Positions 11 to 48,549 of a stretch of DNA of 64,000 bases are shown here, piece by piece. The translations under genes and the position numbers were made by a program. Position 1 is the stretch's first letter; each line of letters starts with the position of its first letter. The DNA lies in contig JAHJTE010000003.1 in NCBI GenBank assembly GCA_018830005.1, positions 7,674 through 71,673 of the forward strand. The letters are read 5' to 3'. Under the pieces are notes generated by a model that had not been told where the DNA came from, ran no database searches, and saw only the letters and a list, made by a program, of their open reading frames with translations. The DNA comes from Candidatus Omnitrophota bacterium (GTDB lineage Bacteria; Omnitrophota; Gorgyraeia; JAHJTE01).

Positions 11-1090
11 TCACAAGAAAGAGAAGAACTCAACTATCTTCTCTATCACTTTATATCTAATTAAATCGTTATAGAAAACAAATGCGACCAGAACAAGCAA
101 AAGGGCCAAACTTGCTCTATTTAACAACTCTTCGGTTTTATCTGAGAGCGGCTTTTTCCTTATGCGCTCGATAAGTAGAAATAAAAGATGTCCTCCGTCT
201 AAAAGCGGTATGGGCAGGAGATTAAAAATTGCTAAACTTACTCCTAAAACAGCAACTACATGCAGTAGTGCAGCTGGCCCAAATTCGAAGGCCTTATTTG
301 TGGCAAAGAATATTCCCAAGGGGCCTGTGACTGACTCCCTTAATGAGAGGCTACCCAGAAGCATCCTAGATAATGCCTGAAGCGTCAAAGAGGTTATGTC
401 AAATAATCTCTCTGTTCCTTTAGCCAATGCAGGAAATAATCCGTAACTTACTTTTACAGTCTCTTCCGAAGGACTTATTCCAATAAGCGCAATAGTTACT
501 TCTTCGCCCAATAAATTTTTTGTTTTCTTAAATTCAGGCCCTACTGTTAGATTAATTTCTTCTCCATCCCGAACTATTCCTAAATTAACTACCTCGCCTT
601 CTTCTTTATCATGGATAATCGAAGCTACATCCTCCCAATATTGGGTATCCTTCCCATCGATAGAAGTAATAATATCGCCAATTTGTATGCCGGCATGTTT
701 TGCCGGCATATCCTCTAATAATCCACCCACGCTTGTAGTTAAAACAGGAAAGCCGATAAAGAAAATACACCAAAAACAAAAGAAGGACATGAGGTAATTA
801 AACAATGGCCCTGTAATTATTACCTTTGCCCTGTCTTTTAGAGGACGTGCGAGAAATTCATAGCGTTTCCCGCTGTAACTCTCGCGGCTATCTCCAGCCA
901 TCTTTACATAGCCGCCAAGAGGAATAAGGCAGATTACATATTCTGTCTGTTTTCCCTTTATGCTAAATAATTTGGGACCAAACCCCAAAGAGAATCTTTC
1001 TACGCGTATGCCGAGGCATCTTGCAACAATAAAATGACCAAATTCGTGAACAATAATCAATACACTCAATACAGCAAGAAAAATCAACAT
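11..1090 (-). CDS. rseP: RIP site-2 zinc metalloprotease (RseP family)
   Basis: HEFGH zinc motif near the N-terminus, multiple TM segments, central PDZ-like region; classic position downstream of dxr/cdsA/uppS. Confidence 0.9.
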   Translation of the reverse strand: MLIFLAVLSVLIIVHEFGHFIVARCLGIRVERFSLGFGPKLFSIKGKQTEYVICLIPLGGYVKMAGDSRESYSGKRYEFLARPLKDRAKVIITGPLFNYLMSFFCFWCIFFIGFPVLTTSVGGLLEDMPAKHAGIQIGDIITSIDGKDTQYWEDVASIIHDKEEGEVVNLGIVRDGEEINLTVGPEFKKTKNLLGEEVTIALIGISPSEETVKVSYGLFPALAKGTERLFDITSLTLQALSRMLLGSLSLRESVTGPLGIFFATNKAFEFGPAALLHVVAVLGVSLAIFNLLPIPLLDGGHLLFLLIERIRKKPLSDKTEELLNRASLALLLVLVAFVFYNDLIRYKVIEKIVEFFSFL

Positions 1091-20048: not shown

Positions 20049-21269
20049 TTAAGGAAGGTTTGAACTTAAACCTATATTAAGACCTTTAAAGACTCTTTCG
20101 AGTCTTGGCAAACTGAGGATATTCATATCTACTAAAACCTGACCTAAATGCATATTAGTATTCCAATGCCTTAAGAGCGCACTTTCCAGCTGTCGAGGAT
20201 TAATTAGTTTTTTATCTAATAATATCTGACCTAATGGCTTATAGCTCTTAGCCTTATTCTTGAGACGATTAGTTCGATGACTAGGCACCTCTTTATCTTC
20301 ATCAAAATTTTGTGCTTGTTCTTTGCTAGCTGTCTTTCTTCTATTGACCAAACTTCTGCTATGTTTGTGCTTTTTAAGATAGCTTTTAATCTCAAAAGCA
20401 ATCTCAACGAATTCAATCAAATTATTAATATTTCTATGTAAATTATTTACGATAGCGATAGATAACCCCATGAGGGGAAAATTGATTATCTTTCCTAATC
20501 TGTCCTTGATTCTTATAAAGCCTTTGTTTCTATCCAGGACAGAGTAGTGAAAAAGGATAAGCTTATCAAATTCATCAATAATGAATCGTGCAATATTTGT
20601 TTCGCGCTGCGGCTGCGTTATGACAACAAAATCATCGCCGCCAATATGAAATAGGAAATCCTCGCCCTGGCCAAATTGCTTAACCGCGGAAGTGATAATA
20701 TGAACTGTCTGCATAATAACCGCATCTCCCAACTTGTAACCATACTTATCATTAAATGATTTAAAATTATTTATATCACAATATAGAAAAGAAAGCGTCT
20801 GTTTAGCCGCTAATTTGCCCTGCACAGTCTTCTCCAACATTCTACTGCCTGGTAATTTTGATAAAGGATTGGCGAAAAATTGATGCTCCGTCCTTCGCAA
20901 GGCCATCTCTATACGCACCTCTAGATCAATTGGATCAGGAGGTTTAGTCAGATAATCATCAAGACCCTGCTCAATCTGTAAAATATCCCGACGCACATTC
21001 TTTTTTCTGATCATCAATAAGAGTGGTATGTGCGCATTATGATAATCAGATTTTAATAACTTAATAACTCCAAAGCCATCAAGACCAGGTAAATCACAAT
21101 CAATGATAATCAAATCAGGTGCAACTCTTGATATAAGCTCGAATGCTGAGGTTCCATCTTTAGTCCAGAGGACATCATATCCCCAACTCTTAATTAACAT
21201 GATAATAATCTCAGCGCAATTGGTATCGTTTGAAGCTAATAGAATTTTTTTACCTTTTGACTCTACCAT
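20049..21269 (-). CDS. response-regulator receiver + GGDEF-family domain (GGDDF variant) + C-terminal MshEN/T2SSE_N-like domain
   Basis: N-terminal REC (DLIIIDCDLPGLDG, phospho-Asp context), central GGDEF fold (DPLSKLPGSR..., HIGGDDF at about 20621-20645), C-terminal tandem LGQILLDKKLI...QLESAL / LGQVLVDMNIL...RLERVF motifs resembling the c-di-GMP-binding MshEN N-terminal domain of GspE/PilB ATPases. Confidence 0.7.
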   Translation of the reverse strand: MVESKGKKILLASNDTNCAEIIIMLIKSWGYDVLWTKDGTSAFELISRVAPDLIIIDCDLPGLDGFGVIKLLKSDYHNAHIPLLLMIRKKNVRRDILQIEQGLDDYLTKPPDPIDLEVRIEMALRRTEHQFFANPLSKLPGSRMLEKTVQGKLAAKQTLSFLYCDINNFKSFNDKYGYKLGDAVIMQTVHIITSAVKQFGQGEDFLFHIGGDDFVVITQPQRETNIARFIIDEFDKLILFHYSVLDRNKGFIRIKDRLGKIINFPLMGLSIAIVNNLHRNINNLIEFVEIAFEIKSYLKKHKHSRSLVNRRKTASKEQAQNFDEDKEVPSHRTNRLKNKAKSYKPLGQILLDKKLINPRQLESALLRHWNTNMHLGQVLVDMNILSLPRLERVFKGLNIGLSSNLP

Positions 21270-21291: not shown

Positions 21292-21576
21292 TCAAGAGAT
21301 TGCTTGTAATGAAGAAATTAAATTCTTTATATCCGGCAAATGAGTAAACAGAAAAGAACAAACAAAAATAATATAAAGCGAGGATAAAATAATAGCAACA
21401 AATGCAATTTTTCTTCCTCTTTGACTATTCTTTTCTTTAGAACGAAGGGCGAGAATAGCAAAAACAATGGCAACTAACGCCTTCTCAATCCCGAGAAGTT
21501 GTACAAATGAGGCAAGTGCAATAACAAGAGAGGCTTGAGCGAATTCATTTACCTTGATATTTCCTGTATCAATCAT
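21292..21576 (-). CDS. small hydrophobic membrane protein (hypothetical)
   Basis: 94 aa, three predicted TM helices, located between two REC genes. Confidence 0.4.
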   Translation of the reverse strand: MIDTGNIKVNEFAQASLVIALASFVQLLGIEKALVAIVFAILALRSKEKNSQRGRKIAFVAIILSSLYIIFVCSFLFTHLPDIKNLISSLQAIS

Positions 21577-21596
21577 GATCTAGGCCTTCCTATTTT

Positions 21597-22016
21597 TTAT
21601 TTATTGGGTTCTTTTTTTGCCTTAGCAAAGAAATGCAAAATGGACTTTATAATATGATCAGCTTCATAAAAATCCTTTGACTTATCAAAGAAGGCATTTG
21701 CCTTTAGCCGATATGCTGCATCTCGGTTCTCTTCTGTGCCGTAAGCAGTGATCATAACCACTGGCAGCTCATCATCCATCTCTCTGATACGACGTAAGGT
21801 TTCAACCCCGTCCATCTCCGGCATACTTATATCCAGAAAAACTATGTTTGGTTTTTGCTGCTTGATAATATCAAGCGCGCCCTTGCCGTTAAAAGCTGTA
21901 CGCACCTTATAACCTTGACTCTTAAGCCAAAATTCCATTGTAGCTACAAAATCCTTTTCGTCATCCACAATAAGTATCTCGATATCTTTATTATGGTTTT
22001 CTATTTTCTTCTCCAT
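21597..22016 (-). CDS. single-domain response regulator (CheY-like receiver)
   Basis: ILIVDDE...FLDISMPEMDG...K receiver motifs, 139 aa, no output domain. Confidence 0.85.
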   Translation of the reverse strand: MEKKIENHNKDIEILIVDDEKDFVATMEFWLKSQGYKVRTAFNGKGALDIIKQQKPNIVFLDISMPEMDGVETLRRIREMDDELPVVMITAYGTEENRDAAYRLKANAFFDKSKDFYEADHIIKSILHFFAKAKKEPNK

Positions 22017-22029
22017 TTGACCTCCTTAT

Positions 22030-24357
22030 TTAATCCTTTACCTCTTTTTTCTCTTGAGTAGAAAATTTCTTAGGAAGTGTAAAACTAAAAGTACTCCCCT
22101 TTCCAATCTCGCTTTTAACCCAAATCTTTCCTTTGTGCAGCTCGACAATTTGTTTACAGATATGAAGCCCTAGGCCTGTGCCGCCTACACCGGCAGGAGA
22201 GATCAAGCTCACCTGCTCAAACTTATCAAATATTCGCTGACAATCCTTCTCCTCAATGCCTATACCATTATCAGTGATACCTACTTCAACAGCCTCAAAA
22301 CTGTTGCCTCCTGAGCCTGCTGTGATATTCTTGCAGGAAATTATAATTTTGCCTTTCTCGGCTATAAATTTAAGCGCATTGCCTATCAAATTAGTTAATA
22401 CTTGATTTATCTTGTCTCTATCTGCTTCTACATCAATCTCCTTCCCGCCTAAACTTAGATCAATTCCAATTTGTTTATCCTTAACCCAAGTATCTAGAGA
22501 TTGCATTACCTCTTGTATAAGTGTGATTAAGTTAAAGGTTGCAGGATTAATACTTATCTTGCCAGCTTCTAACTTAGAAAAATCCAATATATCATCAATC
22601 AGGCGAGAAAGTCTTGAAAGATTAGAATTAGCAATATTTAAAAACTTGTTTTGATCTTCATTTATATCTCCGCAAGCCTTAGAAATCAGAAGCGAAAGAG
22701 ATTTTTTTGTGGCGATTATCGGGGTACGCAATTCATGGCTAACATGTGCAACAAAATCTGACTTCATCTTATCCACTTGCTTTTGACGCGTTATATCACT
22801 AAGCATCATAACCATACCTACGGTATTGCCATTTTCATTCTCTACAACCGCGGTGCTGGCACGCAGAATGCGTTTGGTTTGTTCATCATTACTGCTAAGC
22901 TCAATCTCTTTGCTAACCGCTTCTGCCTCATCAGCCAAATTACCTTTAGCCAATGCAACCAACTGATGGCTGCCTAATCCTTCCTGAAGAAATTTACCTA
23001 TCTTTTCCTTCTTATCTATACCTAATAATTGCTCGGCAGCAGGGTTTATCATCATAACCTTACCTTGTTTATCTACAACAATCATGCCATCAGCAAGATT
23101 TCGTATTACTGTATCAACACGCTCTTTTTCGCCGGCAAGGCGCTTATTTTTTCTTTTCAAATCTTGTGTTGCTTTAGCAATCTCATCGAGCAAAGTCTTG
23201 TCAAAAAGCTTGGCCTTATTTTTGAGTTCTTCATATTCTCTCTTTGCTATGCTAATCTTCTTTCTAGATTCTATTGCATCTTCTAATCTTGCCAGGAGTA
23301 CATCAGAATCTGCTTCCTTTGCGCCCTTTTCTATCAATGCCGCCTTTAGATCTGGAGAAACTCTATTTAATTCTTTACTATCAATTATCAATCTCTTGCT
23401 GCGCTGCAGGAATTTGTTAAGATTAGGTTTTGTTACTTCATAAATCTTAGCTAACATATGAATTTTTAAATTATCATCAAATCCAGATATGATCTCATGC
23501 AGATTATCGATTTCCTTCTTGATCTGGCTGGCACTACTATCTGTATCGATAGACTTTACAATAGCGCGTTCTAGACTAGCAAGTATCCTATCTGGCTTGC
23601 GTTTCTTTTTTATAAGTTCATCACTAAACTCATCGATAATACATTCCCGCAGTTTAGCCAAGACCTTTGCTAGGCTGCCACAGGCAACAGCTGCCTGAAC
23701 AACGATATTGGCAAGCTGGCTAGGTTCAGATAATAGTTTTGAAATAACATCTTCTTTGTGTCTTTCTAAAATTTCTCCTGTTACTTGGCCTTGTAGATAT
23801 TGTTCAAGAATAGCCAGTTCACCTTCATGAGGAACATCCTTTTTGATCTTTTCTTTCTTCTCTAGGAATGCCTCTGCATCTTTCGTCACAGATGAAGTAA
23901 CCTTTTGGCCTTCTTCAACTTTTTCATAATGAACAACATTGGCCTTGATATGACTAAAACCATTGCTTAGAAAGGTTGTTTTAAGCTTCTCTTCATTTTT
24001 ATCCAATTTCTTGCCAATGCTTAGCAGGCTTAATAAATCAGCTAATTCTGATAATTCCATACCTTGCTTAAAAGATATGCTATCTATCTCCAATTCCCTC
24101 ATTTTATCAACCAATTCCTTAGATCCCGCCAATGTAGAAGACAGAGAGATGTCGTTTAAAATAAGTTCTTCTCCTCCAACAAAAATAGTCACCTGGGAAT
24201 TCTCTTTGAGTAGTATAGTAAGATGCTGGTAAAGCTGATTTAGCGACTCTTTAACGATAGGATGTTTTTTGGAATAAAGTGCGATTTTTTTGCTAGTTAT
24301 AAGAATTAACTTGGCAACTTCTAAGTAGACTTTATCTTTTTTGTCTTTATTCGGCAT
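22030..24357 (-). CDS. cytoplasmic PAS-domain sensor histidine kinase
   Basis: 775 aa, no N-terminal TM, PAS-like segment, H-box SHELRTP, G-boxes GGTGLGL in HATPase_c. Confidence 0.85.
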   Translation of the reverse strand: MPNKDKKDKVYLEVAKLILITSKKIALYSKKHPIVKESLNQLYQHLTILLKENSQVTIFVGGEELILNDISLSSTLAGSKELVDKMRELEIDSISFKQGMELSELADLLSLLSIGKKLDKNEEKLKTTFLSNGFSHIKANVVHYEKVEEGQKVTSSVTKDAEAFLEKKEKIKKDVPHEGELAILEQYLQGQVTGEILERHKEDVISKLLSEPSQLANIVVQAAVACGSLAKVLAKLRECIIDEFSDELIKKKRKPDRILASLERAIVKSIDTDSSASQIKKEIDNLHEIISGFDDNLKIHMLAKIYEVTKPNLNKFLQRSKRLIIDSKELNRVSPDLKAALIEKGAKEADSDVLLARLEDAIESRKKISIAKREYEELKNKAKLFDKTLLDEIAKATQDLKRKNKRLAGEKERVDTVIRNLADGMIVVDKQGKVMMINPAAEQLLGIDKKEKIGKFLQEGLGSHQLVALAKGNLADEAEAVSKEIELSSNDEQTKRILRASTAVVENENGNTVGMVMMLSDITRQKQVDKMKSDFVAHVSHELRTPIIATKKSLSLLISKACGDINEDQNKFLNIANSNLSRLSRLIDDILDFSKLEAGKISINPATFNLITLIQEVMQSLDTWVKDKQIGIDLSLGGKEIDVEADRDKINQVLTNLIGNALKFIAEKGKIIISCKNITAGSGGNSFEAVEVGITDNGIGIEEKDCQRIFDKFEQVSLISPAGVGGTGLGLHICKQIVELHKGKIWVKSEIGKGSTFSFTLPKKFSTQEKKEVKD

Positions 24358-24463: not shown

Positions 24464-25198
24464 CTACCTCTTAAGCTGACTGGTCAAAACAATCGCATCT
24501 GCTATTTCGCGCATTGATCTGCGTGTATCCATGCTTGTTTTCTGAATCTTACGGAATGCATCCTCTTCGCTTAACCCTTCCTGGCGCATTAATATGCCCT
24601 TAGCACGCTCTACAACCTTTCTCGTAGCCAGCTCTTCTTTGATGATGCTAGACTCTACTATGACCCTGGCATGTTCAATGGCAACAGCTGCCTGATTAGC
24701 CACAGTAGTCAGGACCTTTACTTCAGCATCACTAAACTTGCGGGGCTTTGACGTGTATAAATTAATTACTCCGATGGCCTTATCTTTAATGCTTAATGGC
24801 ACACTTAAAAGAGAGCATAGATTTTCAGTCTTAGCAATATCACGATTGAGATAACGCTGATCTTTCTTAACGTTATGTGCTATTATCGGTCTGTTTTCCT
24901 TCGCCACCAGACCAGCTATGCCTTCACCAAGTTTTATATTCGGCTTCTTGTTATATAAAGGGCTGATTGATTGTGTGGCGCGCACTACCAATTCGCTCCT
25001 AGATTCGTCTAAAAGCATCAAAGAACAAATCTTCGAATTCATAATCTCCGCCGTTACCGTTACAATCAATCGTAAGATATCTGTCAGATAGAGATGTGAG
25101 GTAATAGCCTGGCTTATTTCAGATATTGCCTTTAAGGCTTGAGGGCTTACTGCGGAACTCCTTGTAGATTTTCTTTCTTTTCGGATTCTTCTTCCCAT
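24464..25198 (-). CDS. GAF-ANTAR RNA-binding antitermination-type regulator
   Basis: N-terminal GAF domain, C-terminal ANTAR helix motif (RAKGILMRQEGLSEEDAF...IADAI); overlaps upstream PilP-like gene by about 50 bp. Confidence 0.75.
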   Translation of the reverse strand: MGRRIRKERKSTRSSAVSPQALKAISEISQAITSHLYLTDILRLIVTVTAEIMNSKICSLMLLDESRSELVVRATQSISPLYNKKPNIKLGEGIAGLVAKENRPIIAHNVKKDQRYLNRDIAKTENLCSLLSVPLSIKDKAIGVINLYTSKPRKFSDAEVKVLTTVANQAAVAIEHARVIVESSIIKEELATRKVVERAKGILMRQEGLSEEDAFRKIQKTSMDTRRSMREIADAIVLTSQLKR

Positions 25199-25689
25199 AG
25201 TCTCAGCATAAATTTCTCGCCACCACTTTCAAGCACAACAAAATTAGCTCTAATATCTTTAATGGTAAATCCGGAAATCTTATCACCCGCTTTTAAATTT
25301 TCTTCGTTAATTACAGCTATTGAATCTTTAGGATTATCTTCAGAAATAATCATACCCGAAAGTTCCAATTTTGAAATTTGTTCCATTTTTGCTACCCAAT
25401 TCTGATCTGAAGAACCGCCGAGACTCCTTTTATCCAAAACAAAAGGGTCTCTACCCCAGTCTAAATCTTTGACATCATAGACGTCTTCCTTTTTTGCTGT
25501 ATCTTTAACAGACGTCTTAAAATAAACTAATTCTTTGCTTGACTCATCTTTATCTATGACTTGCGCTGGCGCCGATTTGGGACGCTGCGGCCGGCTGCGA
25601 GTAAACTTTTTTATAGTAGCAAAAACAGCAATTATCGCTATTGTAACAACTATCACTGCAATAATAAGTTCTTTTTGTTGTTTATCCAT
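25147..25689 (-). CDS. PilP/GspC-like protein (paralog 1)
   Basis: N-terminal TM anchor, conserved DWGRDPFVL motif shared with the 39780-40202 paralog, C-terminal beta-rich domain; follows PilO-like gene. Confidence 0.45.
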   Translation of the reverse strand: MDKQQKELIIAVIVVTIAIIAVFATIKKFTRSRPQRPKSAPAQVIDKDESSKELVYFKTSVKDTAKKEDVYDVKDLDWGRDPFVLDKRSLGGSSDQNWVAKMEQISKLELSGMIISEDNPKDSIAVINEENLKAGDKISGFTIKDIRANFVVLESGGEKFMLRLWEEESEKKENLQGVPQ

Positions 25690-26342
25690 TATTTTCTTTT
25701 TTTTCTTTTTAAATGCAGATCGACTCCTTTTTCTACATCTGCTTCTAAATTGAGGGCGCCTCCATGCGAAAGGACAAAGGCCCCAAGTAACAACTCAATT
25801 TCTAATTCTGAAGCCGAACCTTTTAGCTTGCTTATCTTTAACTCATCAAAACTAAAGGCATATTGTGTGTTCTCAAACATAACCTTTAAGAACTCTGTCA
25901 AAGGACGATATCCTGCATTCAATTTTAATTTGATAGGCACTTTATTGAAGATAAGGTCGCTTTTGGTATCTGTTTGTGATTCATATCTCATCGCCTTATC
26001 CGGTTCGATAGAGATAATTTCTATATTAAATTTATCTGCCTGATTAAATAGTTCCTGAAACATACCAGGAAGTTCATTCTGAGAAGGGAATTTATCTTGA
26101 AGTTTCGTAACCTCGGCTTGCATTTTGGCGATTTCTTTCTCATAGCCTTCTGCCTTTACCCTGACCTCCTCTTCCTTAATGTTGATATCAAAATCCTTAA
26201 CCTTTTGCAAAATGCTGGTAATATCGCGTCTTTTTGGCAAATATAAGAATTGCCAGAATATAAAAACAACTATAAACATTATTCCGGCAGAAATCAAAAT
26301 TATGACCTGACGTTTATCAATATTAAATTTTGTGGTGTTCAT
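25689..26342 (-). CDS. PilO/GspM-like bitopic protein (paralog 1)
   Basis: Short cytoplasmic N-terminus, single TM, coiled coil then periplasmic domain; 217 aa; translationally coupled to PilMN and PilP-like genes. Confidence 0.55.
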   Translation of the reverse strand: MNTTKFNIDKRQVIILISAGIMFIVVFIFWQFLYLPKRRDITSILQKVKDFDINIKEEEVRVKAEGYEKEIAKMQAEVTKLQDKFPSQNELPGMFQELFNQADKFNIEIISIEPDKAMRYESQTDTKSDLIFNKVPIKLKLNAGYRPLTEFLKVMFENTQYAFSFDELKISKLKGSASELEIELLLGAFVLSHGGALNLEADVEKGVDLHLKRKKRK

Positions 26343-27946
26343 TCTATTTTTGATAGTTCAACCGTTAACTTAAAATCAATGGCTTCTAGTTGGTCTATCT
26401 CTTCTTTTATGGTCAAGAGGAGATTTACATTATTAAAATAAGGCGAATTCTCTAATTTGAGTAAGAAATCAGCGAGGTAATTTTCAGCTGAGTCTCCAGA
26501 GGCAAAACTCAAACCTCTGATAAAAAATACCGCCTCCTTTTTAAAGAATTCCATATCTAAGAATTCAATGGATCTGGGTATGATTCGACTCAATTCTTTG
26601 AGATAAACGAAAAGTTCTAACTCTGTTCCGATGATCTCCTTAAAGAATCTCTGTCTCTCTATAATATTATCCCTTAATGTCCTCAGTTTTACAAGATTAC
26701 TGTAATAATCATTGTAGGAAGTAAGTATCTTCTGGTAGCGCTTTAATTGTACTGTCATTGAAAGAAAACTAAATATCATCAACACCAACAGGACAGGAGC
26801 GATAATCCGTAATATCTTCTGTTGTATGCCAATTGTCTTTTGAATCTTTACTGATTTAGGCAAGAGATCTACTGTGTCACCTTTTCCTAAACATACACCA
26901 ATACTAGCAGCAAGTGTTGGTAGGATATTCGATAAATCTTTACCCTTAGGAATCTTAGAGGTAATATTGCTGGGCAGGGTTATAAGCTTAGTAGGAATGC
27001 CACCTAAGCCATCACTTACAAAATCAGTCAGATTTTTCAAGTTCGCCCCACCGCCGGCTAGAAAAACCTGATCAATTGCATCAACTTGGAATTCCTCACG
27101 GAAATATCTAAAAGAGCTGCGTATGTCAGTTAAGAGTCTTTCTAAAATCGGCCGCATCAAGACTGAAATCTGCGATAAGGGTATATCCTGAAAACTCGAG
27201 TTGACTTGTGATTTTGCTGGAATGCCGCATTCTCTTTTTATTTCCTCTGCCTTCTTTGCATCCAGCTCTATTTTTTTAGGAAAGGTAACCACAACACCAC
27301 TTAAGGCGCGAGTAAAGCTATCCGAGGCTGTGGTAATCTTTCGAATAAATTGCAGTGTCGCCCCTTTAAAAATTAAAATATTTGTCTTATTTAGACCGAT
27401 GTCAATAACTGCACTTACCTTCTGCACCATTTCCTGCTCTTTCTGCGCAATAAGGTTTGCCAAAGCGAAATGACTTATCGTAATAAATGCTGGCTCAACA
27501 CCTGCTGCTTGCAGCGATTTTACGTGCCTGTCAATTAACGTATTATGAACCGCTACCGCTAATATCTCATTGCGTTTTATTCCATCGCTGCCAGTAATAG
27601 TGTTTAATATTTTTAAGTCAATTTTGCTCTCATCTAAGTTAAAATTTGTCACTTCCTTTAATGACCAGCGCACTGCATCGCGTAAATCTTCCTTGGGCAT
27701 AAAAGGAACAATGGAACGCTTTAAAACTATGTCCTGGCCAGAGACTAAGGAATAAACTTGCGATTCTGCAGTTCCTAATTCTTCTAATACTTCCTTCAAT
27801 AGCGATTGCTTAACTTCGTCGCTAGATTCAGAACCAAACTCTTTAATCACAAAATCCAAGATATCGATTCGGCCATCGCTTCTTTCAATCTTTACGGCCT
27901 TAATTGAATATTGACCTATATCTATACCGATTAAGTATTTTTCCAT
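26339..27946 (-). CDS. PilM-PilN fusion (GspL-like architecture), paralog 1
   Basis: N-terminal actin-like PilM domain (IGIDIGQYSIKAV...), TM helix at about residue 380, then PilN-like periplasmic tail; 535 aa. Confidence 0.7.
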   Translation of the reverse strand: MEKYLIGIDIGQYSIKAVKIERSDGRIDILDFVIKEFGSESSDEVKQSLLKEVLEELGTAESQVYSLVSGQDIVLKRSIVPFMPKEDLRDAVRWSLKEVTNFNLDESKIDLKILNTITGSDGIKRNEILAVAVHNTLIDRHVKSLQAAGVEPAFITISHFALANLIAQKEQEMVQKVSAVIDIGLNKTNILIFKGATLQFIRKITTASDSFTRALSGVVVTFPKKIELDAKKAEEIKRECGIPAKSQVNSSFQDIPLSQISVLMRPILERLLTDIRSSFRYFREEFQVDAIDQVFLAGGGANLKNLTDFVSDGLGGIPTKLITLPSNITSKIPKGKDLSNILPTLAASIGVCLGKGDTVDLLPKSVKIQKTIGIQQKILRIIAPVLLVLMIFSFLSMTVQLKRYQKILTSYNDYYSNLVKLRTLRDNIIERQRFFKEIIGTELELFVYLKELSRIIPRSIEFLDMEFFKKEAVFFIRGLSFASGDSAENYLADFLLKLENSPYFNNVNLLLTIKEEIDQLEAIDFKLTVELSKIE

Positions 27947-27953
27947 ACTAGCC

Positions 27954-28343
27954 CTATTTCAATAACTCGTTTATTTTCTCTAACAAAGTTTCTGGTCTTT
28001 CTGATTTTACTATATAACAATCTGCACCCATATCTTTACCCAGTTGTCTATCCTCATTCTGGCCCCTGGCAGTAAGCATAATAATCGGGATCATACGATA
28101 TTTCTCATCAAATTTTAGAAATCTGCACACCTTATAACCATCCATCTTAGGAAGCATTAAATCCAGAACAATCAAATCAGGTTTTTCGCTCCTTGCCACA
28201 TTTAAACCTTCTTGTCCGTCAATAGCAACTAAGACAGTAAAATTATTTGCCTCAAGCATTGCCTTAATTGCCATTAAAAAATCAGGCTCATCATCAACAA
28301 CAAGAATTCTTTTTTTGGTATTTCCTTTATCTTCTGTCATCAC
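27954..28343 (-). CDS. single-domain response regulator (CheY-like receiver)
   Basis: ILVVDDEPDF...LDLMLPKMDG receiver motifs, 129 aa, 4-bp overlap with upstream histidine kinase. Confidence 0.85.
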   Translation of the reverse strand: MMTEDKGNTKKRILVVDDEPDFLMAIKAMLEANNFTVLVAIDGQEGLNVARSEKPDLIVLDLMLPKMDGYKVCRFLKFDEKYRMIPIIMLTARGQNEDRQLGKDMGADCYIVKSERPETLLEKINELLK

Positions 28344-30049
28344 TTGCCCTCTTTCTTCGTTAATACCTTATTCGCCTCGTTCACTAGCTCGGTCTCGTTA
28401 AGCGCATCATCAGGATAAGTTACAACACCAATCTCAAAATTTAATTTTATTCTACCGCTGGAGGTATTAAACTCAGGCTTTTCCAAAGACTCTCTTACGC
28501 GACCCGCTAAGGCATATGCACCTTCCTTATTGGTATCGGCTAAGATTGCTAGAATTTCTCCTTTTTTGAATCTTATCACAACATCATTAGGCCTGCGCAC
28601 TGTTTTCTTGACAATTGCCTCTAATTCAAACATAAGCCCTAAAATTTCGTCACGTGATAATCGTGTCTTAACTTTAGAGAAATTCTCTACAGCTAATACT
28701 ACCAATGATAAAGAATTATGTTCAGAGCGTGCGCGATTAATCTCATCAGAAACACGTTCAAAGAAATGCTCCTCTTCGTTGAAAATCGGCAGCGTAAAGA
28801 AAAAACTACTTCCCTTATTTAGTTCAGACTCGGCCCAGATCTCACCCTTATGAAGCTTAAGGATCTCCCGGGAGATTGCCAGCCCTAATCCTGTGCCTTT
28901 CTCTCTCTGAGGCAGGTCCCTGTCTAGCTGCTCGAATTTACTAAAAATCTTTTCAATGCTATCAGGCTCAATACCTTTACCAGTATCAGTAACTTCTACC
29001 CGCAAGTATTTTCTCTCTTGGCCCTTTGCTATGGATTTGCTAATAGTCTTTGCGTCTAACAAGACCTTACTGTTCTTTGGGCTGAATTTTATTGCATTAC
29101 CTATTAGATTAGTAAAAACCTCTATAATCCTTTCCCTATCCGCATATATATCGGGTGTTTCTTTAGGAATCCTATTTTCAACATCTATTTGCTTCTCTAG
29201 TAATAATCCCTCGAATGTACGCAAGACCTCAGTTGAGAGATCTGCCATCTTAATCTTTAACCTTTTTAAATCAAATCTACCAGCTTCGATACGAGAGAGT
29301 GAAAGTAAGTTATTAATTAAGCGCGTAAGTCTTTCAATATTAGAATCCATCAACTGCAGGTAGTCTCTCTGCTGTTTATTTATTGCTCCTGCTGCCTCTT
29401 TCAACATTAAAGAAGTAAAGTATCTGCAAGTAGCTAAAGGCGTTCCTAATTCGTGAGAGACATTAGCAACAAAATCAGATTTTAGGAGGTCCAGTTCTTT
29501 CAGCCGCTCATTTGCGCTTAACAATTCCTGGTAAAGACGTGCATTAGAAACAGCTATCGAGGCCTCATTTGCTAAAGCACTTAAAAGCTCTAAATCATCC
29601 TTAGTAAAAATCCTCTTGCCGCGCTTGTTATTGACATTAAGAACGCCGATTACCTGGTCTCTCGCCTTCAAGGGGACACTTAATAGCGACTGGTTATAAT
29701 ATTTACCCTTTTCGCGCGGCCGAAAGCGTCGATCTTTTGATATATCATTGATAAGTAAAGGTTTACCTGTTTTTGCCACCCAACCAGAAACGCCCACACC
29801 TATTTTAACTATCGCCTTTTTTATAACCTCTCTGCTTATACCCTTGGCATACTCTATCCTCAATTCTTTCTTTTGCTTATCCAGAAGCATTAAAGATGAA
29901 CGCTCCACATTTAAGACTTCGACGGTATTGTCAATGATCGATTTAAGGCAACGCTTTAATCCTAGATTAGAGTTTACCTCCTTGGCAATCTTAAAAAGGA
30001 TTTCCAGCCACTGAACCTTATTCTTGAGGTTTCCTTTACTCTTTGGCAT
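28340..30049 (-). CDS. cytoplasmic GAF sensor histidine kinase with C-terminal degenerate GGDEF-like domain
   Basis: GAF domain, H-box SHELGTP, HATPase_c G-boxes (GTGLGLAI), C-terminal about 150 aa with GGDEF-fold spacing but KKGEIL in place of GGDEF. Confidence 0.75.
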   Translation of the reverse strand: MPKSKGNLKNKVQWLEILFKIAKEVNSNLGLKRCLKSIIDNTVEVLNVERSSLMLLDKQKKELRIEYAKGISREVIKKAIVKIGVGVSGWVAKTGKPLLINDISKDRRFRPREKGKYYNQSLLSVPLKARDQVIGVLNVNNKRGKRIFTKDDLELLSALANEASIAVSNARLYQELLSANERLKELDLLKSDFVANVSHELGTPLATCRYFTSLMLKEAAGAINKQQRDYLQLMDSNIERLTRLINNLLSLSRIEAGRFDLKRLKIKMADLSTEVLRTFEGLLLEKQIDVENRIPKETPDIYADRERIIEVFTNLIGNAIKFSPKNSKVLLDAKTISKSIAKGQERKYLRVEVTDTGKGIEPDSIEKIFSKFEQLDRDLPQREKGTGLGLAISREILKLHKGEIWAESELNKGSSFFFTLPIFNEEEHFFERVSDEINRARSEHNSLSLVVLAVENFSKVKTRLSRDEILGLMFELEAIVKKTVRRPNDVVIRFKKGEILAILADTNKEGAYALAGRVRESLEKPEFNTSSGRIKLNFEIGVVTYPDDALNETELVNEANKVLTKKEGK

Positions 30050-38047: not shown

Positions 38048-39757
38048 TTAGGCCTGTGTCTGTGTCTGGGTTATGCGCAAAATCTCCTCAATAGAAGTCA
38101 AGCCCCTTGTTGCCTTCTCTAGGCCATCGTCCCTTAAGGTTATTAGGCCTCCCTTTCTTGCCTCGCGCATTATTACATCACTTGAGGCCTTGGCAACTGC
38201 TATCTCTCTGAGTGCCTCATCCATTAACATTACCTCAAAGACTGCGATTCTCCCCTTATAGCCGATATTAGAACAGTGACGGCAACCCACAGCCTTAAAG
38301 AATTTATAATCTTTATTCTTTTCTAATCGCAATTCTGTCAATAGCTGCTCACTGGGAGAATAGGCCTGTTTACAATTATCGCAGAGGACGCGCGCCAGCC
38401 TTTGAGCTACTACACCGATTAAGGAAGATGAAATCAAAAACGGCTCAGCCCCCATATCGATCATTCGCGTTATTGCTCCGGGGGCATCATTGGTATGCAA
38501 AGTTGAAAATACGAGCTGGCCAATTAAAGCAGCGTGGATTGAAATCTCAAGTGTCTCTAAGTCTCTAATTTCACCAACCATAATTACATTTGGATCTTGC
38601 CTTAATATCGAACGCAAGCCTGATGCGAATGTAAGGCCTGCCTTGGGATTAACTTGGGACTGTCTAATCAATGGCAATTTATACTCAACAGGATCTTCCA
38701 AAGTAATAATATTCTTGCCAATTGTATTTATTGTCTGCAACGTTGAATAAAGCGTAGTTGTTTTTCCGCTTCCAGTAGGGCCAGTAACAAGAATTATGCC
38801 GTAAGGATTGCGTATCATCTCTTGGAATTTATCAAGCGCCTGTTTAGAAAATCCTAAATCCCTAAGACCAATAAGAAGGCTACTTTTATCTAGTAGCCTC
38901 ATCACTATATTTTCACCATGGATAGTGGGAAAAGAAGAAACCCTTAAATCCACTTCAATCTTGCCTAATTTAAAAGTAAAGCCTCCATCCTGGGGTCTTC
39001 TTTTTTCTGCAATATCCATTTTAGAAAGAATCTTTACGCGCGAGATTATACCACTCATCAAGAATTTTGGCGGAGACGGCTTCTCATAAAGGATACCGTC
39101 TATACGAAAACGTATTCTTAATTGCTGTTCATCCGGCTCGATGTGAATATCAGAGGCCTTCTCTTTTATTGCCTGGACAATAAGAAGATTAACCAGGCGT
39201 ATCAGGGGTGCTTCTTCAGCCAATTTGGAGGAATCCTTTATATCATCTACTCTCTTGAGCTTCTCAATCATCTTATTTATATCTTCCTCATCAATATCTT
39301 CCACAATCTGTTCAATATCACCCTTGACACCATAATAAGAATCAATAGCAGTGCCAATTAACTGACCAATACTCAAAACCGGATCTATGTCACACTCGCT
39401 CTTTAAACGTACTTCATCAATAGCGATAATATCAGAAGGATCAGCCATAGCCACAGTCAGGCTATTGCCGACTTTAAACAATGGAATAAGCGTATACTTA
39501 CTAGCTACTTCTTTAGGAATTAGCTTTAAGACTTCTTTATCAATTGTATAATCAGCCAAGTCAATAAAGGGCACGCCAATTTCTTTGGCAATTATTGCTG
39601 CTATCTTTTCATTATTAACCACGCCCTGCTTAATCAGAACCTTCTCCAGAGAAAGGGCATTCTTTTTTGCTTCTTCTTTGGCAAGCTTTAAGCGCTCCTT
39701 GGAAATCAACTCCTCATCCAGAAGTATCGCTTCTAAAATCTTCTTACCTTGCGTCAT
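38048..39757 (-). CDS. type IV pilus/T2SS assembly ATPase (PilB/GspE family) with N-terminal MshEN/T2SSE_N domain, copy 1
   Basis: 569 aa, Walker A GPTGSGKTTTL, Asp box, His box, tetracysteine CxxC...CxxC, N-terminal T2SSE_N domain. Confidence 0.92.
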   Translation of the reverse strand: MTQGKKILEAILLDEELISKERLKLAKEEAKKNALSLEKVLIKQGVVNNEKIAAIIAKEIGVPFIDLADYTIDKEVLKLIPKEVASKYTLIPLFKVGNSLTVAMADPSDIIAIDEVRLKSECDIDPVLSIGQLIGTAIDSYYGVKGDIEQIVEDIDEEDINKMIEKLKRVDDIKDSSKLAEEAPLIRLVNLLIVQAIKEKASDIHIEPDEQQLRIRFRIDGILYEKPSPPKFLMSGIISRVKILSKMDIAEKRRPQDGGFTFKLGKIEVDLRVSSFPTIHGENIVMRLLDKSSLLIGLRDLGFSKQALDKFQEMIRNPYGIILVTGPTGSGKTTTLYSTLQTINTIGKNIITLEDPVEYKLPLIRQSQVNPKAGLTFASGLRSILRQDPNVIMVGEIRDLETLEISIHAALIGQLVFSTLHTNDAPGAITRMIDMGAEPFLISSSLIGVVAQRLARVLCDNCKQAYSPSEQLLTELRLEKNKDYKFFKAVGCRHCSNIGYKGRIAVFEVMLMDEALREIAVAKASSDVIMREARKGGLITLRDDGLEKATRGLTSIEEILRITQTQTQA

Positions 39758-42454: not shown

Positions 42455-44095
42455 TTAAGGGATTTCTCGCCAGTATTTCTGCAAGTTAGAATCTTCTAAA
42501 AATGTATCTAAATACTTATTGCCGTCGTCTTTAATCACCATCTTCACGCGTCGGGAAACATTGCCTTTTTTACCTACAGCATCTATCAGGAAACTATTTG
42601 TATAGTAGGAAAATTCCGTTGAGTTACAATTTACATAGGTATCTGGCATATCTGCTCTGGGTGCTAACCAAGAGCTATCAGCATAATTTAATATCCTATT
42701 CTTTTGATCATCAGTTAAGGAAAGTCCCATAATAAAATCATAAAAATCAGTAGTTACTGAAGAATCGGAATTGTAAAAACAGGTGAATGGAGCGATATTT
42801 CTTTTATTGATAATTTCAGTAGCCAAGGTTCTGGATAAGGTTGTCCCGAGAAACGTATCAAATATTGCCTCTAAGACTAGACTTGAAGCGGTATTGATAT
42901 TAACCGGCGCCCTAGCAGCGTCTCTTTCGAATCTATTGCTTCCCAGATCAGGACGACGTACAGCGTAACCATTTACATAGGAATAGACCGTAATATAATC
43001 TTTAATTTGCTCAAATTCTGCCTGGCTCAAAGCAGGATCTAGAGATATATTTTTTATTTCTTCGATTGAGCCAAAAGGTTTATCATCTGAACCCAGCCAA
43101 CCCAACTCATCTGTCTCGTCAGTAAATCCATCTGCATCGTCATTAACACCAGCTACACCAGGCCGTAGATCTGGGCCGTTTCGGTAAGCTACAACTGCTG
43201 TGGCAATATTCGCTGCTCGTGTTGAACCTATCCCGGCCTTTCTGAACAGCCATTGCAAAAAAGCGATATTACCATAACGCGAAGCATAATTTATATTCAC
43301 CTTGCTTGATTCGTCAATTATATCTACGGATTCTATTTCACCCTCACTTAAAGTAATATTATTGAATCCCGAATACCAATCTTCAGTATTGGTATCTATC
43401 TCATATTCCACTCTTAAAAAGAGGTAATCCAGCTCTACATCCCTATTGCTAGAACCACGCGCCAAGGCCCTTATTCTAAAATTTGGACTGTTTATAATCG
43501 ACCAATCCCAGCTCCTGTCGCGAGTTATATCTACATATCCAAAGCTATAAGAGGTTGAACTAACCTGAAATCTACCAGTTCTATTTCCTGGTTCTGGAAA
43601 TACACCTGTTGTTGTATATGATATATCTAACCTTGGATTTTTTCCTCCACTAGAACTCTTTCTAAATCTTACTCCAATCTCCACATTTTTTATGCGCGTG
43701 CCCAAATAATTTCTATCAAAATCATAGACTATTACATCAGTGCCCGGATTTTGCGCATCCATAGTAAGATATCCATCAACTGTCTCTGCATAGTAGCGCA
43801 CGCGATTTCTTTCTGCCTCATCTGCCCCTGCAGAACCTTCTGTTCTGACTCCTCTTAAATCCGCAGTGCCAGTCTGAGTAGTAGTTAAGACATCATCTCG
43901 AATCTCTCTTATGCCCTGCTCTATTCCTGCCTCAGCCAAGGCAAGTGCCTTAGCATAATCAAGATTGTTAGCTGCCTGGCGCATTTCAGTAGTAGCAATA
44001 AACAAATACACCGCAACAATAACAGTCAATAAAACAAAGAACAAAAGGATTGTAATTAGTATAAAACCGCTTCGGTTAGCGGAAGGAAAATACAT
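42455..44095 (-). CDS. PilX-N-terminal-domain pilus-associated large protein (PilX/PilY/GspK-like minor pilin or tip protein)
   Basis: N-terminal RSGFILITILLFFVLLTVIVAV hydrophobic segment typical of the PilX_N domain, 546 aa mostly beta-rich extracellular region. Confidence 0.55.
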   Translation of the reverse strand: MYFPSANRSGFILITILLFFVLLTVIVAVYLFIATTEMRQAANNLDYAKALALAEAGIEQGIREIRDDVLTTTQTGTADLRGVRTEGSAGADEAERNRVRYYAETVDGYLTMDAQNPGTDVIVYDFDRNYLGTRIKNVEIGVRFRKSSSGGKNPRLDISYTTTGVFPEPGNRTGRFQVSSTSYSFGYVDITRDRSWDWSIINSPNFRIRALARGSSNRDVELDYLFLRVEYEIDTNTEDWYSGFNNITLSEGEIESVDIIDESSKVNINYASRYGNIAFLQWLFRKAGIGSTRAANIATAVVAYRNGPDLRPGVAGVNDDADGFTDETDELGWLGSDDKPFGSIEEIKNISLDPALSQAEFEQIKDYITVYSYVNGYAVRRPDLGSNRFERDAARAPVNINTASSLVLEAIFDTFLGTTLSRTLATEIINKRNIAPFTCFYNSDSSVTTDFYDFIMGLSLTDDQKNRILNYADSSWLAPRADMPDTYVNCNSTEFSYYTNSFLIDAVGKKGNVSRRVKMVIKDDGNKYLDTFLEDSNLQKYWREIP

Positions 44096-46854: not shown

Positions 46855-48549
46855 TTATTCTTCCGTAACCCTCATTATTTCTTCAATAGTGGTAATACCA
46901 GAGGTGATTTTGTTTAAACCTGCTTCTCTTAAACTACGCATGCCTAATCTTGCAGCAGTTAGACGGATAGCACTGGTAGATACCTTATTTATAGCGAGGT
47001 CTTTAATCGCCTCGTGCATAATAAGCAGTTCAAAAATCGCTGCCCTGCCGTGAAAACCAGTATCAAAACACTTCTTGCAGCCCTTTGCCTGATAAAAATT
47101 CTTTGTAGATAACTCTTTTTTCTTTGGAATATTAAGACTTGCCAGGACCTTATCAGAAACATTATAGCTGGCTTTGCAGTCCGGACAAAGCCGCCTTACC
47201 AACCTCTGCGCAATTATACCAATAACTGATGAGGCGATCAGAAAAGGTTCTATGCCCATATCAATAAGGCGCGTTATTGCTCCTGGCGCGTCGTTTGTAT
47301 GCAAGGTCGATAACACCAGATGCCCTGTTAAGGCAGAATGTATGGCAATCTCGGCTGTCTCTTTATCGCGAATCTCTCCTACCATTATTATATCCGGATC
47401 CTGGCGTAAAATCGAACGCAATCCATTTGCAAACGTAAGATTTACCTTTGGATTGACCTGAATTTGACGTACTCCTTCAAGATGGTATTCTACAGGATCC
47501 TCAATAGTAATAATATTCTTATCCGCAGAGTTTATCTTACTTAAAGAGGCATAGAGCGTAGTTGTCTTTCCACTACCTGTTGGTCCTGTAACCAGAATAA
47601 TGCCGTGGGGCCTTGTGATTAATTGGGAATATTTTTCCAGTTCCTCATTTTCAAAACCTAAATCTGTCAAACTAAAATTTAGCTGTGTAGTATCAAGTAA
47701 TCTTAAAACGATATTCTCCCCGAAAACAGTAGGAACAGTCGAGACCCTAATATCAATGCGCCTATTTTCAAGTTTTACCTGAAAGCGGCCATCCTGAGGA
47801 ATTCTGCGCTCTGAAATATCAAGATTGGCAAGTATCTTTATGCGAGAAATCACTGCCTGCTGCAAGTGCTTTGGCGGAGACTCTACTTCATGCAACATGC
47901 CATCAATGCGATAACGCACTCTTATCGTATCTTCTTCTGGCTCAATGTGGATATCGCTTGCCTCTTCTTTAATTGCCTTCATTACAAGAAGATTTACTAG
48001 TCTAATAAGGGGCGGTTCCTGCGCCAGATTCTGGAGACGTTTGACTGAGACTTCTTTACCTGCCTTTAAATCATTTTCTACTTGCTCTAATTCTTCTACA
48101 ATCTGATCAATGCTTGTCTTGGCTCCATAGTAAGACTCAATCGCCTTGCGGATATCGGATTCCTTAGCGACTACAGCCTCAATAGTAAGTCCAGACATCA
48201 TGCGAATCTTATCCTGGGCAACAATATTTAGTGGCTCGGCCATAGCGCAGGTTAGAGTGTTGGCGATTTTAAAAACCGGCATAAGTTCATATTGCTGCGC
48301 AACCTCTCTGGGCACAAATTGTAATATCGCAGGGTCAATCAAATAACTGCTTAAATCAATACTGGGAATCCCTAAATGCGAACTTAAAAAAGAGACAAAA
48401 GAATCTTCATCTATAAATTCCAGCTTAAGAATTGCTTTGCGCAGGGAAATACCAGCTCTTTTTGCTTCTTTTTCAGCCTGTTTAACCTGTTCTTGAGTAA
48501 TCAGTCCTGTCTGGACCAAACTCTGTATTAAAGACTTCTTTTCCTTCAT
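46855..48549 (-). CDS. type IV pilus/T2SS assembly ATPase (PilB/GspE family) with N-terminal T2SSE_N domain, copy 2
   Basis: 564 aa, Walker A GPTGSGKTTTL, tetracysteine motif, N-terminal MshEN-like domain; paralogous to 38048-39757. Confidence 0.92.
   Translation of the reverse strand: MKEKKSLIQSLVQTGLITQEQVKQAEKEAKRAGISLRKAILKLEFIDEDSFVSFLSSHLGIPSIDLSSYLIDPAILQFVPREVAQQYELMPVFKIANTLTCAMAEPLNIVAQDKIRMMSGLTIEAVVAKESDIRKAIESYYGAKTSIDQIVEELEQVENDLKAGKEVSVKRLQNLAQEPPLIRLVNLLVMKAIKEEASDIHIEPEEDTIRVRYRIDGMLHEVESPPKHLQQAVISRIKILANLDISERRIPQDGRFQVKLENRRIDIRVSTVPTVFGENIVLRLLDTTQLNFSLTDLGFENEELEKYSQLITRPHGIILVTGPTGSGKTTTLYASLSKINSADKNIITIEDPVEYHLEGVRQIQVNPKVNLTFANGLRSILRQDPDIIMVGEIRDKETAEIAIHSALTGHLVLSTLHTNDAPGAITRLIDMGIEPFLIASSVIGIIAQRLVRRLCPDCKASYNVSDKVLASLNIPKKKELSTKNFYQAKGCKKCFDTGFHGRAAIFELLIMHEAIKDLAINKVSTSAIRLTAARLGMRSLREAGLNKITSGITTIEEIMRVTEE

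Follow-up and report, generated by a model that had tools for sequence, protein, structure and literature searches.

A REC-GGDEF(GGDDF) protein with a C-terminal MshEN_N module represents a common and under-annotated protein family of Omnitrophota

The window analyzed here is a 64,000-nucleotide (nt) stretch of the genome of a Candidatus Omnitrophota bacterium (contig JAHJTE010000003.1, positions 7,674 to 71,673), and the element in question is a single open reading frame (ORF) on its minus strand (20049-21269, ATG start), which encodes a protein of 406 amino acids (aa). The protein consists of a receiver domain (REC), a complete GGDEF fold with the signature GGDDF, and a C-terminal MshEN_N module, and its gene is linked in an operon-like manner to the genes of a PAS kinase and a single-domain REC. 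Each part is of a known kind, a REC-GGDEF cyclase and an MshEN_N receptor, and their combination is real, common in Omnitrophota, and under-annotated. This architecture, with the same GGDDF signature and no RxxD motif, had been proposed in a sequence-only reading of the window, and the sequence profiles, the predicted fold, and the motif spacing all bear it out. With regard to function, the most likely reading, to which we give about even chances, is that the protein is a kinase-controlled diguanylate cyclase of the WspR/DgcR type without an inhibitory site (I-site), whose tethered MshEN_N module senses the cyclic di-GMP (c-di-GMP) that it makes.

The 406-aa ORF has the same sequence (100% identity) as P0001, a public protein encoded on a 302-kb contig of a 'Candidatus Omnitrophica' metagenome-assembled genome (MAG) and annotated only as 'diguanylate cyclase'. 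The best 120 database matches were all full-length Omnitrophota proteins with the same domain order, and these occur in two forms, one of about 400 aa, like the target, and one of about 485 aa, in which the MshEN domain is complete and includes the T2SSE_N1 subdomain. Throughout these Omnitrophota homologues GGDDF is invariant and the first MshEN_N motif carries the signature PLGQ…HW. The GC content here is 0.36, against 0.33-0.43 elsewhere in the window, and this similarity gives no sign of recent import. An AlphaFold2 (AF2) model of the full 406-aa protein, calculated with 119 homologues as input, had a mean predicted local distance difference test score (pLDDT) of 87 and a predicted template modeling score of 0.79. 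The counts for family columns given below refer to an alignment of the 119 homologues. The features of the gene are as follows.

20049..21269, minus strand: whole ORF, 406 aa, REC - GGDEF(GGDDF) - linker - MshEN_N (from the ORF list, the identity to P0001, and AF2)
20910..21245, minus strand: REC, residues 9-120, with the phospho-acceptor D57 (from Pfam PF00072 and Foldseek)
20340..20867, minus strand: GGDEF-fold domain, residues 135-310 (from Pfam PF00990, phmmer, AF2, and Foldseek)
20658..20669, minus strand: I-site position, Q201-G-E-D204, with no RxxD (from the alignment columns)
20628..20642, minus strand: GGDDF signature, residues 210-214, preceded by H208 (read from the sequence and the alignment)
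20250..20339, minus strand: low-confidence, probably flexible linker, residues 311-340, about 30 aa (AF2 pLDDT 49-59; columns not conserved)
20166..20237, minus strand: MshEN_N motif I, residues 345-368, PLGQILLDKKLINPRQLESALLRH (agrees with the relaxed Wang motif at 9 of 11 positions)
20151..20165, minus strand: spacer of 5 residues, W369-N-T-N-M373 (same length as in MshE)
20079..20150, minus strand: MshEN_N motif II, residues 374-397, HLGQVLVDMNILSLPRLERVFKGL (8 of 11 relaxed positions)

For the C-terminal tail, the two tandem motifs of about 24 residues that had been noticed earlier are both present and are spaced by exactly 5 residues. The resulting layout, PLGQILLDKKLINPRQLESALLRH + WNTNM + HLGQVLVDMNILSLPRLERVFKGL, is 24+5+24, or 53 residues, which is the layout of the c-di-GMP-binding MshEN_N subdomain described by Wang 2016 (PMC5013675). 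In the AF2 model, this segment forms a four-helix module (helices 346-352, 358-370, 375-381, and 387-396; pLDDT 87-96). When the 68-aa tail alone was searched with phmmer against 177,635 PDB sequences, it matched Thermus PilF (E = 2.1e-10; the GSPII-A domain of PilF, 1.3e-4) and Vibrio cholerae MshE (5HTL, E = 1.9e-3, chain residues 7-54). A profile built from 34 family tails and run against the PDB with hmmsearch gave E = 6.9e-24 for PilF and 5.5e-13 for 5HTL (chain residues 7-62), and also matched the PilB proteins of Geobacter and Myxococcus, while no unrelated chain scored below E = 0.4. Modeled on its own (pLDDT 91.6), the tail superimposed on c-di-GMP-bound 5HTL with a template modeling score of 0.85 and a root-mean-square deviation of 0.8 Å, and its best 13 PDB fold matches were all MshEN/GSPII domains. 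When the tail profile was run against all 310 six-frame ORFs in the window, it matched only the target and the N-termini of two GspE/PilB ATPases. The homology of the tail to MshEN_N is thus secure.

In contrast to the PDB profile search, the Pfam search of the tail was negative: PF05157 ('MshEN') gave no match on the target at E ≤ 10, and the tail had no match in NCBIfam either. PF05157 covers residues ~59-145 of the GspE/PilB ATPases of the window (61-144 of ATPase A) and, in the 482-aa long-form homologue P0053, residues 393-474 (E = 9e-13), downstream of the motifs. Since PF05157 models the T2SSE_N1 half only, its silence on the target does not refute the MshEN_N assignment. The T2SSE_N1 subdomain (MshEN_C, alpha/beta) is absent from the target, which ends 9 residues after motif II. 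Therefore, the earlier assignment of the tail to an MshEN/T2SSE_N module holds for the MshEN_N half (53 aa) but not for the T2SSE_N1 half.

The reading of the MshEN likeness as a chance match of amphipathic helices, with the tail an unrelated helical extension, would be consistent with the silence of PF05157 and NCBIfam, with a sub-threshold DUF4388 match to the tail (E = 0.0016, treated as short-helical-motif noise), with weak FumaraseC_C and HTH_AraC matches to homologue tails (also treated as noise), and with a Foldseek E of only 0.018 for a 61-aa tail model. However, the profile scores for MshE and PilF extend over exactly the 53-residue module with nothing unrelated near them, the 24+5+24 spacing is exact, and the long forms run on from the motifs into a T2SSE_N1 subdomain that Pfam detects, with a model that skips the motif region. 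Taken with the superposition of the tail model, the PDB profile search and the long-form T2SSE_N1 refute the chance-match reading, which we regard as extremely improbable.

The ability of this copy to bind c-di-GMP is a separate matter. The MshEN_N consensus is RLGxx(L/V/I)(L/V/I)xxG(L/V/I)(L/V/I)xxxxLxxxLxxQ, and its relaxed version after Wang 2016 was scored at 11 positions. Motif I agreed at 9 of these, with K354 in place of the turn Gly and H368 in place of the Gln, and motif II at 8, with H374 in place of Arg/Lys, N383 in place of Gly, and L397 in place of Gln. Both Leu-Gly pairs and all four Leu/Phe positions that contact guanine are kept in the target. In the canonical MshEN_N, the backbone amides of the Leu-Gly pairs read guanine O6/N7, the Arg stacks, and the Gln binds ribose/phosphate; the non-binder XpsE lost the Leu-Gly positions, and isolated MshEN_N(1-62) binds c-di-GMP with a Kd of 0.35 uM (PMC5013675). 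The Xanthomonas XpsE protein lost both Gly residues, whereas the target, which has no C-terminal subdomain, keeps both.

Several observations weigh against binding by the target copy. In both motifs the consensus residue is lost at position 1 (Arg replaced by P345 and H374), at position 10 (the turn Gly replaced by K354 and N383), and at position 24 (Gln replaced by H368 and L397). The altered positions have been shown experimentally to matter, and published mutagenesis points both ways for binding (PMC5013675, PMC12002112). In addition, the closest single match of the tail in the PDB is the GSPII-A domain of Thermus PilF, a non-binder, whose residues H33, S39, and R62 are incompatible with binding, with His at position 24 and Ser at motif II position 1 (PMC12002112). 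The target shares with GSPII-A (9G1W) the His at motif I position 24 and the non-Arg residue at motif II position 1, the pair that abolishes binding there, but lacks its Ala in place of the motif-II Gly, its N-cap-extended helix 1, and its tight contacts with a C-terminal subdomain.

These substitutions, together with the likeness to GSPII-A, speak for the main rival explanation, which we consider rather unlikely. In it, the GGDDF cyclase is active and the tail of the target clade is a non-binding module for docking or dimerization, comparable to GSPII-A or XpsE, which could dock for example onto PilM-N/PilO or GspE/PilB. The variation within the family points the same way. Motif II scores 11 of 11 in all 45 long-form relatives and in 24 of the 74 short forms, whereas the target, even on the relaxed motif, falls into the lowest motif-II class, which holds 8 of the 74 short forms, and its clade lies at the divergent end. 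Within this clade (P0002-P0010), G383 and Q397 are consistently lost and the rest is kept, suggesting a conserved function other than canonical binding. Conversely, G347, Q348, L361, L365, H368, and G376 are found in 119 of 119 homologues, P345 and W369 in 117 each, and Q360 in 112, and of these P345, Q348, Q360, H368, and W369 look like a conserved pocket rather than the result of drift. Both Leu-Gly pairs and the guanine-contact Leu/Phe positions are invariant, unlike in XpsE, and the predicted structure of the tail is closest to ligand-bound MshE. We conclude that the tail is a functional module, which probably forms a ligand pocket, and that canonical high-affinity c-di-GMP binding by the target copy, as judged from these substitutions, would be about an even bet. 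The sequence-only reading, which took the tail for a c-di-GMP receptor, was correct as to the homologous domain, but binding is not assured in view of the changes at consensus positions 1, 10, and 24.

For the central domain, the assignment to the GGDEF fold survived the hidden Markov model analysis. Pfam PF00990 matched residues 135-232 (E = 1.5e-15; bit score 57.8, cut-off 23.8; aligned over profile positions 5-105 of 161), and AF2 predicted a complete GGDEF fold up to residue ~310, with pLDDT above 90 over residues 140-310. The best PDB matches in Foldseek were WspR, PleD, and DgcR (E = 5e-18 to 1e-14), with DosC also among the top folds, and phmmer matched DgcZ (7.7e-8) and 34 other GGDEF structures, 35 in total. 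The NCBIfam matches, to PleD, DgcR, and other REC/GGDEF models, were partial, and none came near an equivalog cut-off.

The signature GGDDF, which had been placed at about 20621-20645 and lies at 20628-20642, is invariant together with the preceding His: G210, G211, D212, D213, F214, and H208 are each found in 119 of 119 homologues. The same holds for D165, F169, K170, N173, D174, G181, D182, E289, E293, K295, R310, and R311, and K299 is present in 118. They line up in register with DIDxFKxxNDxxGHxxGD...GGEEF of DgcZ, and D165, K170, N173, D174, D182, K295, and K299, which are residues of the metal-, guanine-, and phosphate-binding type, fall in register with that enzyme; we take them to be the equivalents of the residues that have these roles in PleD numbering. 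Such invariance of catalytic-type residues is expected of an enzyme, not of a decayed domain.

On the other hand, two features of the domain weigh against cyclase activity. GGDDF does not fit the usual signature [G/A/S]G[D/E]E[F/Y], having Asp at the fourth residue in place of the catalytic Glu, and His replaces the Arg before GG. Of the two tested GGDDF proteins cited, the GGDDF-EAL protein PA3258 is inactive and has no cyclase phenotype, whereas GSU1937 of Geobacter sulfurreducens has a GGDDF domain that was shown to be active in vivo (PMC8835794). GSU1937, a Hypr GGDEF protein, has the same GGDDF as the target but different N-terminal domains, and where Hypr has the Ser associated with cGAMP, the target has D182. 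This canonical Asp predicts, on residue identity, specificity for GTP+GTP.

These deviations would fit a protein with a dead GGDDF domain that acts as a phosphorylation-gated receptor or adaptor for c-di-GMP or another nucleotide (cf. FimX, PelD, and SgmT) and senses messenger from other sources in the cell, as would the partial Pfam alignment of the domain and the presence of a degenerate GGDEF in a neighboring GAF-histidine kinase, which indicates that non-catalytic GGDEF domains are in use at the locus. We consider this explanation unlikely. The metal-, guanine-, and phosphate-type residues are invariant over the 119 homologues, the signature stays unchanged even between phyla, AF2 predicts the full fold with confidence, and at least one GGDDF domain, that of GSU1937, is active. 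Furthermore, the target has no RxxD I-site, the site with which degenerate GGDEF domains of the receptor type normally bind c-di-GMP. The invariant catalytic-type residues across phyla and the absence of an I-site thus favor an enzyme.

For the receiver domain, Pfam PF00072 matched residues 9-120 (E = 7.3e-15; bit score 55.5, cut-off 30.2), and the domain in the AF2 model has the (beta-alpha)5 fold and superimposes on the PhoB, VicR, and MtrA receivers in Foldseek at 1.6-2.0 Å. The phospho-acceptor at the end of beta-3 is D57 in the target, and Asp is found at this position in 118 of 119 homologues. At the end of beta-5, the target has the conserved Lys (K109). Three deviations, however, weigh against phosphorylation control. 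After beta-1, S13-N14-D15 stands in place of the acidic DD pair; I87 stands in place of the Thr/Ser switch at the end of beta-4, with Ile in 114 of 119 homologues; and in 40% of the family the conserved Lys is replaced by Asn (position 109: Lys in 63 and Asn in 48 of 119). To locate the acidic pair and the switch, we used the secondary structure of the AF2 model and the CheY numbering. Because the Thr/Ser and acidic-pair positions, and in part of the family the Lys, deviate, phosphorylation control of the receiver seems plausible but not certain.

Taking these domains together, the mechanism to which we give even chances would run as follows. The adjacent PAS kinase would phosphorylate D57, and the receiver and the long alpha-5 helix would then drive dimerization, as in DgcR and WspR, so that paired GGDDF domains could condense two GTP into c-di-GMP. 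The tethered MshEN_N would capture the product in cis, and this capture might either regulate the cyclase, itself devoid of an RxxD site, by feedback or switch the tail to a state that contacts a partner. A single polypeptide would thus be both the source of the messenger and its first receptor, which would take local c-di-GMP signaling to an extreme. In the target clade, the partner system is likely to be the co-conserved platform of PilM-N, PilO, and T2SSB-like proteins.

Compared with known systems, the N-terminal part of the target resembles WspR of Pseudomonas aeruginosa (3BRE), PleD of Caulobacter crescentus (1W25/2V0N), and DgcR of Leptospira (6ZXB), all of which have a receiver, a helical linker, and a GGDEF domain. 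The target differs from them in having GGDDF instead of GG[DE]EF, His before GG, no RxxD, no Thr/Ser switch, and an additional C-terminal MshEN_N, and the sequence identity is only 17-22%. The module shares with the MshEN_N of V. cholerae MshE (5HTL) and with GSPII-B/C of Thermus PilF the 24+5+24 four-helix bundle, the Leu-Gly pairs, and the Leu contacts, whereas it is C-terminal on a cyclase rather than N-terminal on a secretion ATPase and is not followed by T2SSE_N1. Its motif I starts with Pro and ends with His-Trp, and its motif II starts with His, has no turn Gly, and ends with Leu, unlike those of MshE and PilF.

Fusions of MshEN or MshEN_N with REC, HD-GYP, adenylate/guanylate cyclase, CheA, CheX, kinase, and glycosyltransferase domains are known (PMC5013675). 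Bd2402 (REC-MshEN_N-UNK), MXAN_2809 (MshEN-HD-GYP-REC-DUF4388), and MXAN_7396 ((MshEN_N)2-REC-ACyc) combine MshEN_N with receivers or nucleotide enzymes, as does the target. The architecture list of Wang 2016 (PMC5013675) contains no GGDEF fusion, and the domain order REC-GGDEF-MshEN_N, like the PLGQ...HW signature, is specific to this family of Omnitrophota. The closest functional analogy comes from Escherichia coli, where the C-terminal MshEN of NfrB (GT2-MshEN) takes up c-di-GMP as an allosteric signal and one specific cyclase, DgcJ, supplies it locally (PMC8669469); DgcJ and NfrB are, however, two interacting proteins, whereas the target is one polypeptide with no output domain besides the cyclase. 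No GGDEF-MshEN fusion was found in full-text literature searches, and searches for c-di-GMP or pili in Omnitrophota found nothing relevant. The earlier description of the architecture as unusual therefore holds with respect to the literature searched but not with respect to nature, since more than 120 full-length Omnitrophota homologues show that it is not rare.

To place the family more widely, one genome per GTDB species was scanned for relatives with the patterns H[IV]GGDDF and DD[YF][LI]x[KN]PPDP. The scan yielded at least 595 REC-GGDDF relatives. Most of these are tail-less REC-GGDDF proteins of about 310 aa from Actinomycetota, Chloroflexota, Elusimicrobia, Eisenbacteria, Clostridia, and others; an example is found in Herpetosiphon aurantiacus DSM 785 (Chloroflexota; L031 10001-10936). 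Among the relatives, the MshEN_N tail was found only in MAGs of the Omnitrophota type. The Arg of RxxD was present in none of 71 members of the wider, mostly tail-less family. Since the core lacks the I-site in many phyla and the tail occurs only in Omnitrophota, the REC-GGDDF family is old, spans many phyla, and lacked the I-site ancestrally, and the tail is a lineage-specific addition of Omnitrophota. The idea that the MshEN_N tail replaces a lost I-site is weakened by the same count of 0 of 71, which includes tail-less relatives.

The ~310-aa family itself, with an invariant GH(I/V)GGDDF, a DDYLxKPPDP motif, and no RxxD (loci L012, L017-L083), appears uncharacterized, and no characterized member of the REC-GGDDF family was found. 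A search of the tail profile against 1.84 billion representative sequences (E ≤ 0.001) returned 14,354 MshEN_N-like representatives. Multi-repeat proteins dominate the top of this set, which is uninformative on architectures, and among the best 150 of the 14,354 representatives the LGQ...HW variant occurred only in fragments of the target family. Many of the 14,354 have 3-9 tandem MshEN_N copies in proteins of 200-1,500 aa, and such poly-MshEN_N proteins seem to be far commoner than published architecture lists imply.

The target is the last gene of a tight run on the minus strand, in which the gaps are 13-22 nt. The genes around it and the two GspE/PilB ATPases of the window, all assigned with Pfam, are as follows.

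21292-21576, minus strand: DUF4190 small membrane protein, directly upstream of the target
21597-22016, minus strand: single-domain REC, upstream of the target
22030-24357, minus strand: PAS-histidine kinase (PAS-HisKA-HATPase), upstream of the target
24464..30049, minus strand: GAF-ANTAR, T2SSB-like, PilO, PilM-N fusion, REC, and GAF-histidine kinase with degenerate GGDEF
25147-27946, minus strand: PilM-N fusion (26339-27946), PilO, and T2SSB-like genes
38048..39757, minus strand: GspE/PilB ATPase A, T2SSE and MshEN matches, MshEN_N with both motif Gly changed to Glu (tail profile E = 6e-3)
46855..48549, minus strand: GspE/PilB ATPase B, MshEN_N with motif Gly changed to Ile and Arg (tail profile E = 9e-5)

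The upstream genes at 21292..24357 and the target probably form one operon, and the same upstream gene order is found in two homologous loci; across these loci, the PAS kinase gene is two or three genes upstream and has the same orientation. The whole block, including PilMN and PilO, is kept in two other genomes, in loci with 65-66% identity (L001 1-5161 and L084 588-6205); L001 differs in that a GIY-YIG gene separates PilMN from PilO. The PilM-N, PilO, and T2SSB/PilP-like genes within 24464-30049 have no adjoining ATPase, platform protein, or secretin. They are flanked by two two-component systems and a GAF-ANTAR RNA-binding regulator, an arrangement kept in three genomes. The GAF-HisKA-HATPase protein at 28340-30049 carries a C-terminal GGDEF-family domain without GG[DE]EF (it reads ...RFKKGEILAIL...), and this fusion of a kinase to a degenerate GGDEF is kept in both syntenic loci.

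Adjacency to pilus genes, as claimed earlier, is found for the PilM-N, PilO, and T2SSB-like genes, but the linkage is kept only in the clade of at least 65% identity. A family-wide linkage to pili was accordingly rejected. For three short-form relatives with ~47-51% identity, the gene instead lies directly upstream of purB-purC-purL on the same strand, with varied upstream neighbors (L002 9001-14178, L085 2293-9746, and L087 8001-17233; the cluster also includes purQ/purF/purM/purD). The position of a GTP-consuming cyclase beside pur genes may be meaningful or may be mere inherited gene order. Two long forms share yet another conserved context, distinct from both the pilus and the pur contexts.

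For the two GspE/PilB ATPases, which had been said to carry the same N-terminal domain as the target, the domain is indeed shared, but the binding signature is lost, with both Gly residues replaced in each protein. The MshEN_N helices are kept in both, and several Leu/Gln positions are also replaced. Both ATPases are predicted from these substitutions not to bind c-di-GMP, and the earlier idea that the target might compete with the pilus motors for c-di-GMP therefore loses its basis. The earlier functional inferences about pilus motors are only weakly supported.

A further possibility, which we regard as distinctly unlikely, builds on the loss of the binding Gly from these motors. In this scenario, REC-GGDDF-MshEN_N would be a self-contained 'make-and-sense' device, whose private, invariant pocket (P345, Q348, Q360, H368, and W369, where canonical MshEN has Arg and Gln) is perhaps re-tuned to its own product or to another nucleotide such as pGpG, cGAMP, or GTP. 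Once loaded, the tail would act in trans and pass the signal to pilus or secretion platforms with ATPases that no longer have the binding Gly, the receptor domain having in effect moved from the motor to the cyclase.

Elsewhere in the window, a 707-aa ORF (48577-50700) directly upstream of a GspE/GspF pair had no Pfam match at E ≤ 0.001, and a 546-aa ORF (42455-44095) had only a sub-threshold T2SSK match; both are possibly divergent components of the secretin or minor-pseudopilin type. On the 3' side of the target, a terminator scan found none. In the 154-nt gap before a MarR gene, there is a strong, near-consensus promoter-like site of the sigma-70 type, TTGACA-17-TATAGT (11/12), at 19985-19957 on the minus strand, and this MarR gene heads a MarR-TolC-like-RND efflux run downstream of the target.

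The findings bear on the specificity problem of c-di-GMP signaling, in which many cyclases share one diffusible messenger. If the proposed function is correct, 'local' signaling would find its simplest case in such a cyclase, covalently joined to a high-affinity receptor module, and the MshEN_N module would offer a means of control for a cyclase without an I-site. The invariant GGDDF/His signature across many phyla bears on the question of whether GGDDF domains are generally active, and merits a study of its own. The tailed family is large and phylum-wide in Omnitrophota, organisms that are uncultured and often ultra-small, and has been annotated only as 'diguanylate cyclase'; since its short form escapes the Pfam MshEN model, censuses of c-di-GMP receptors undercount it.

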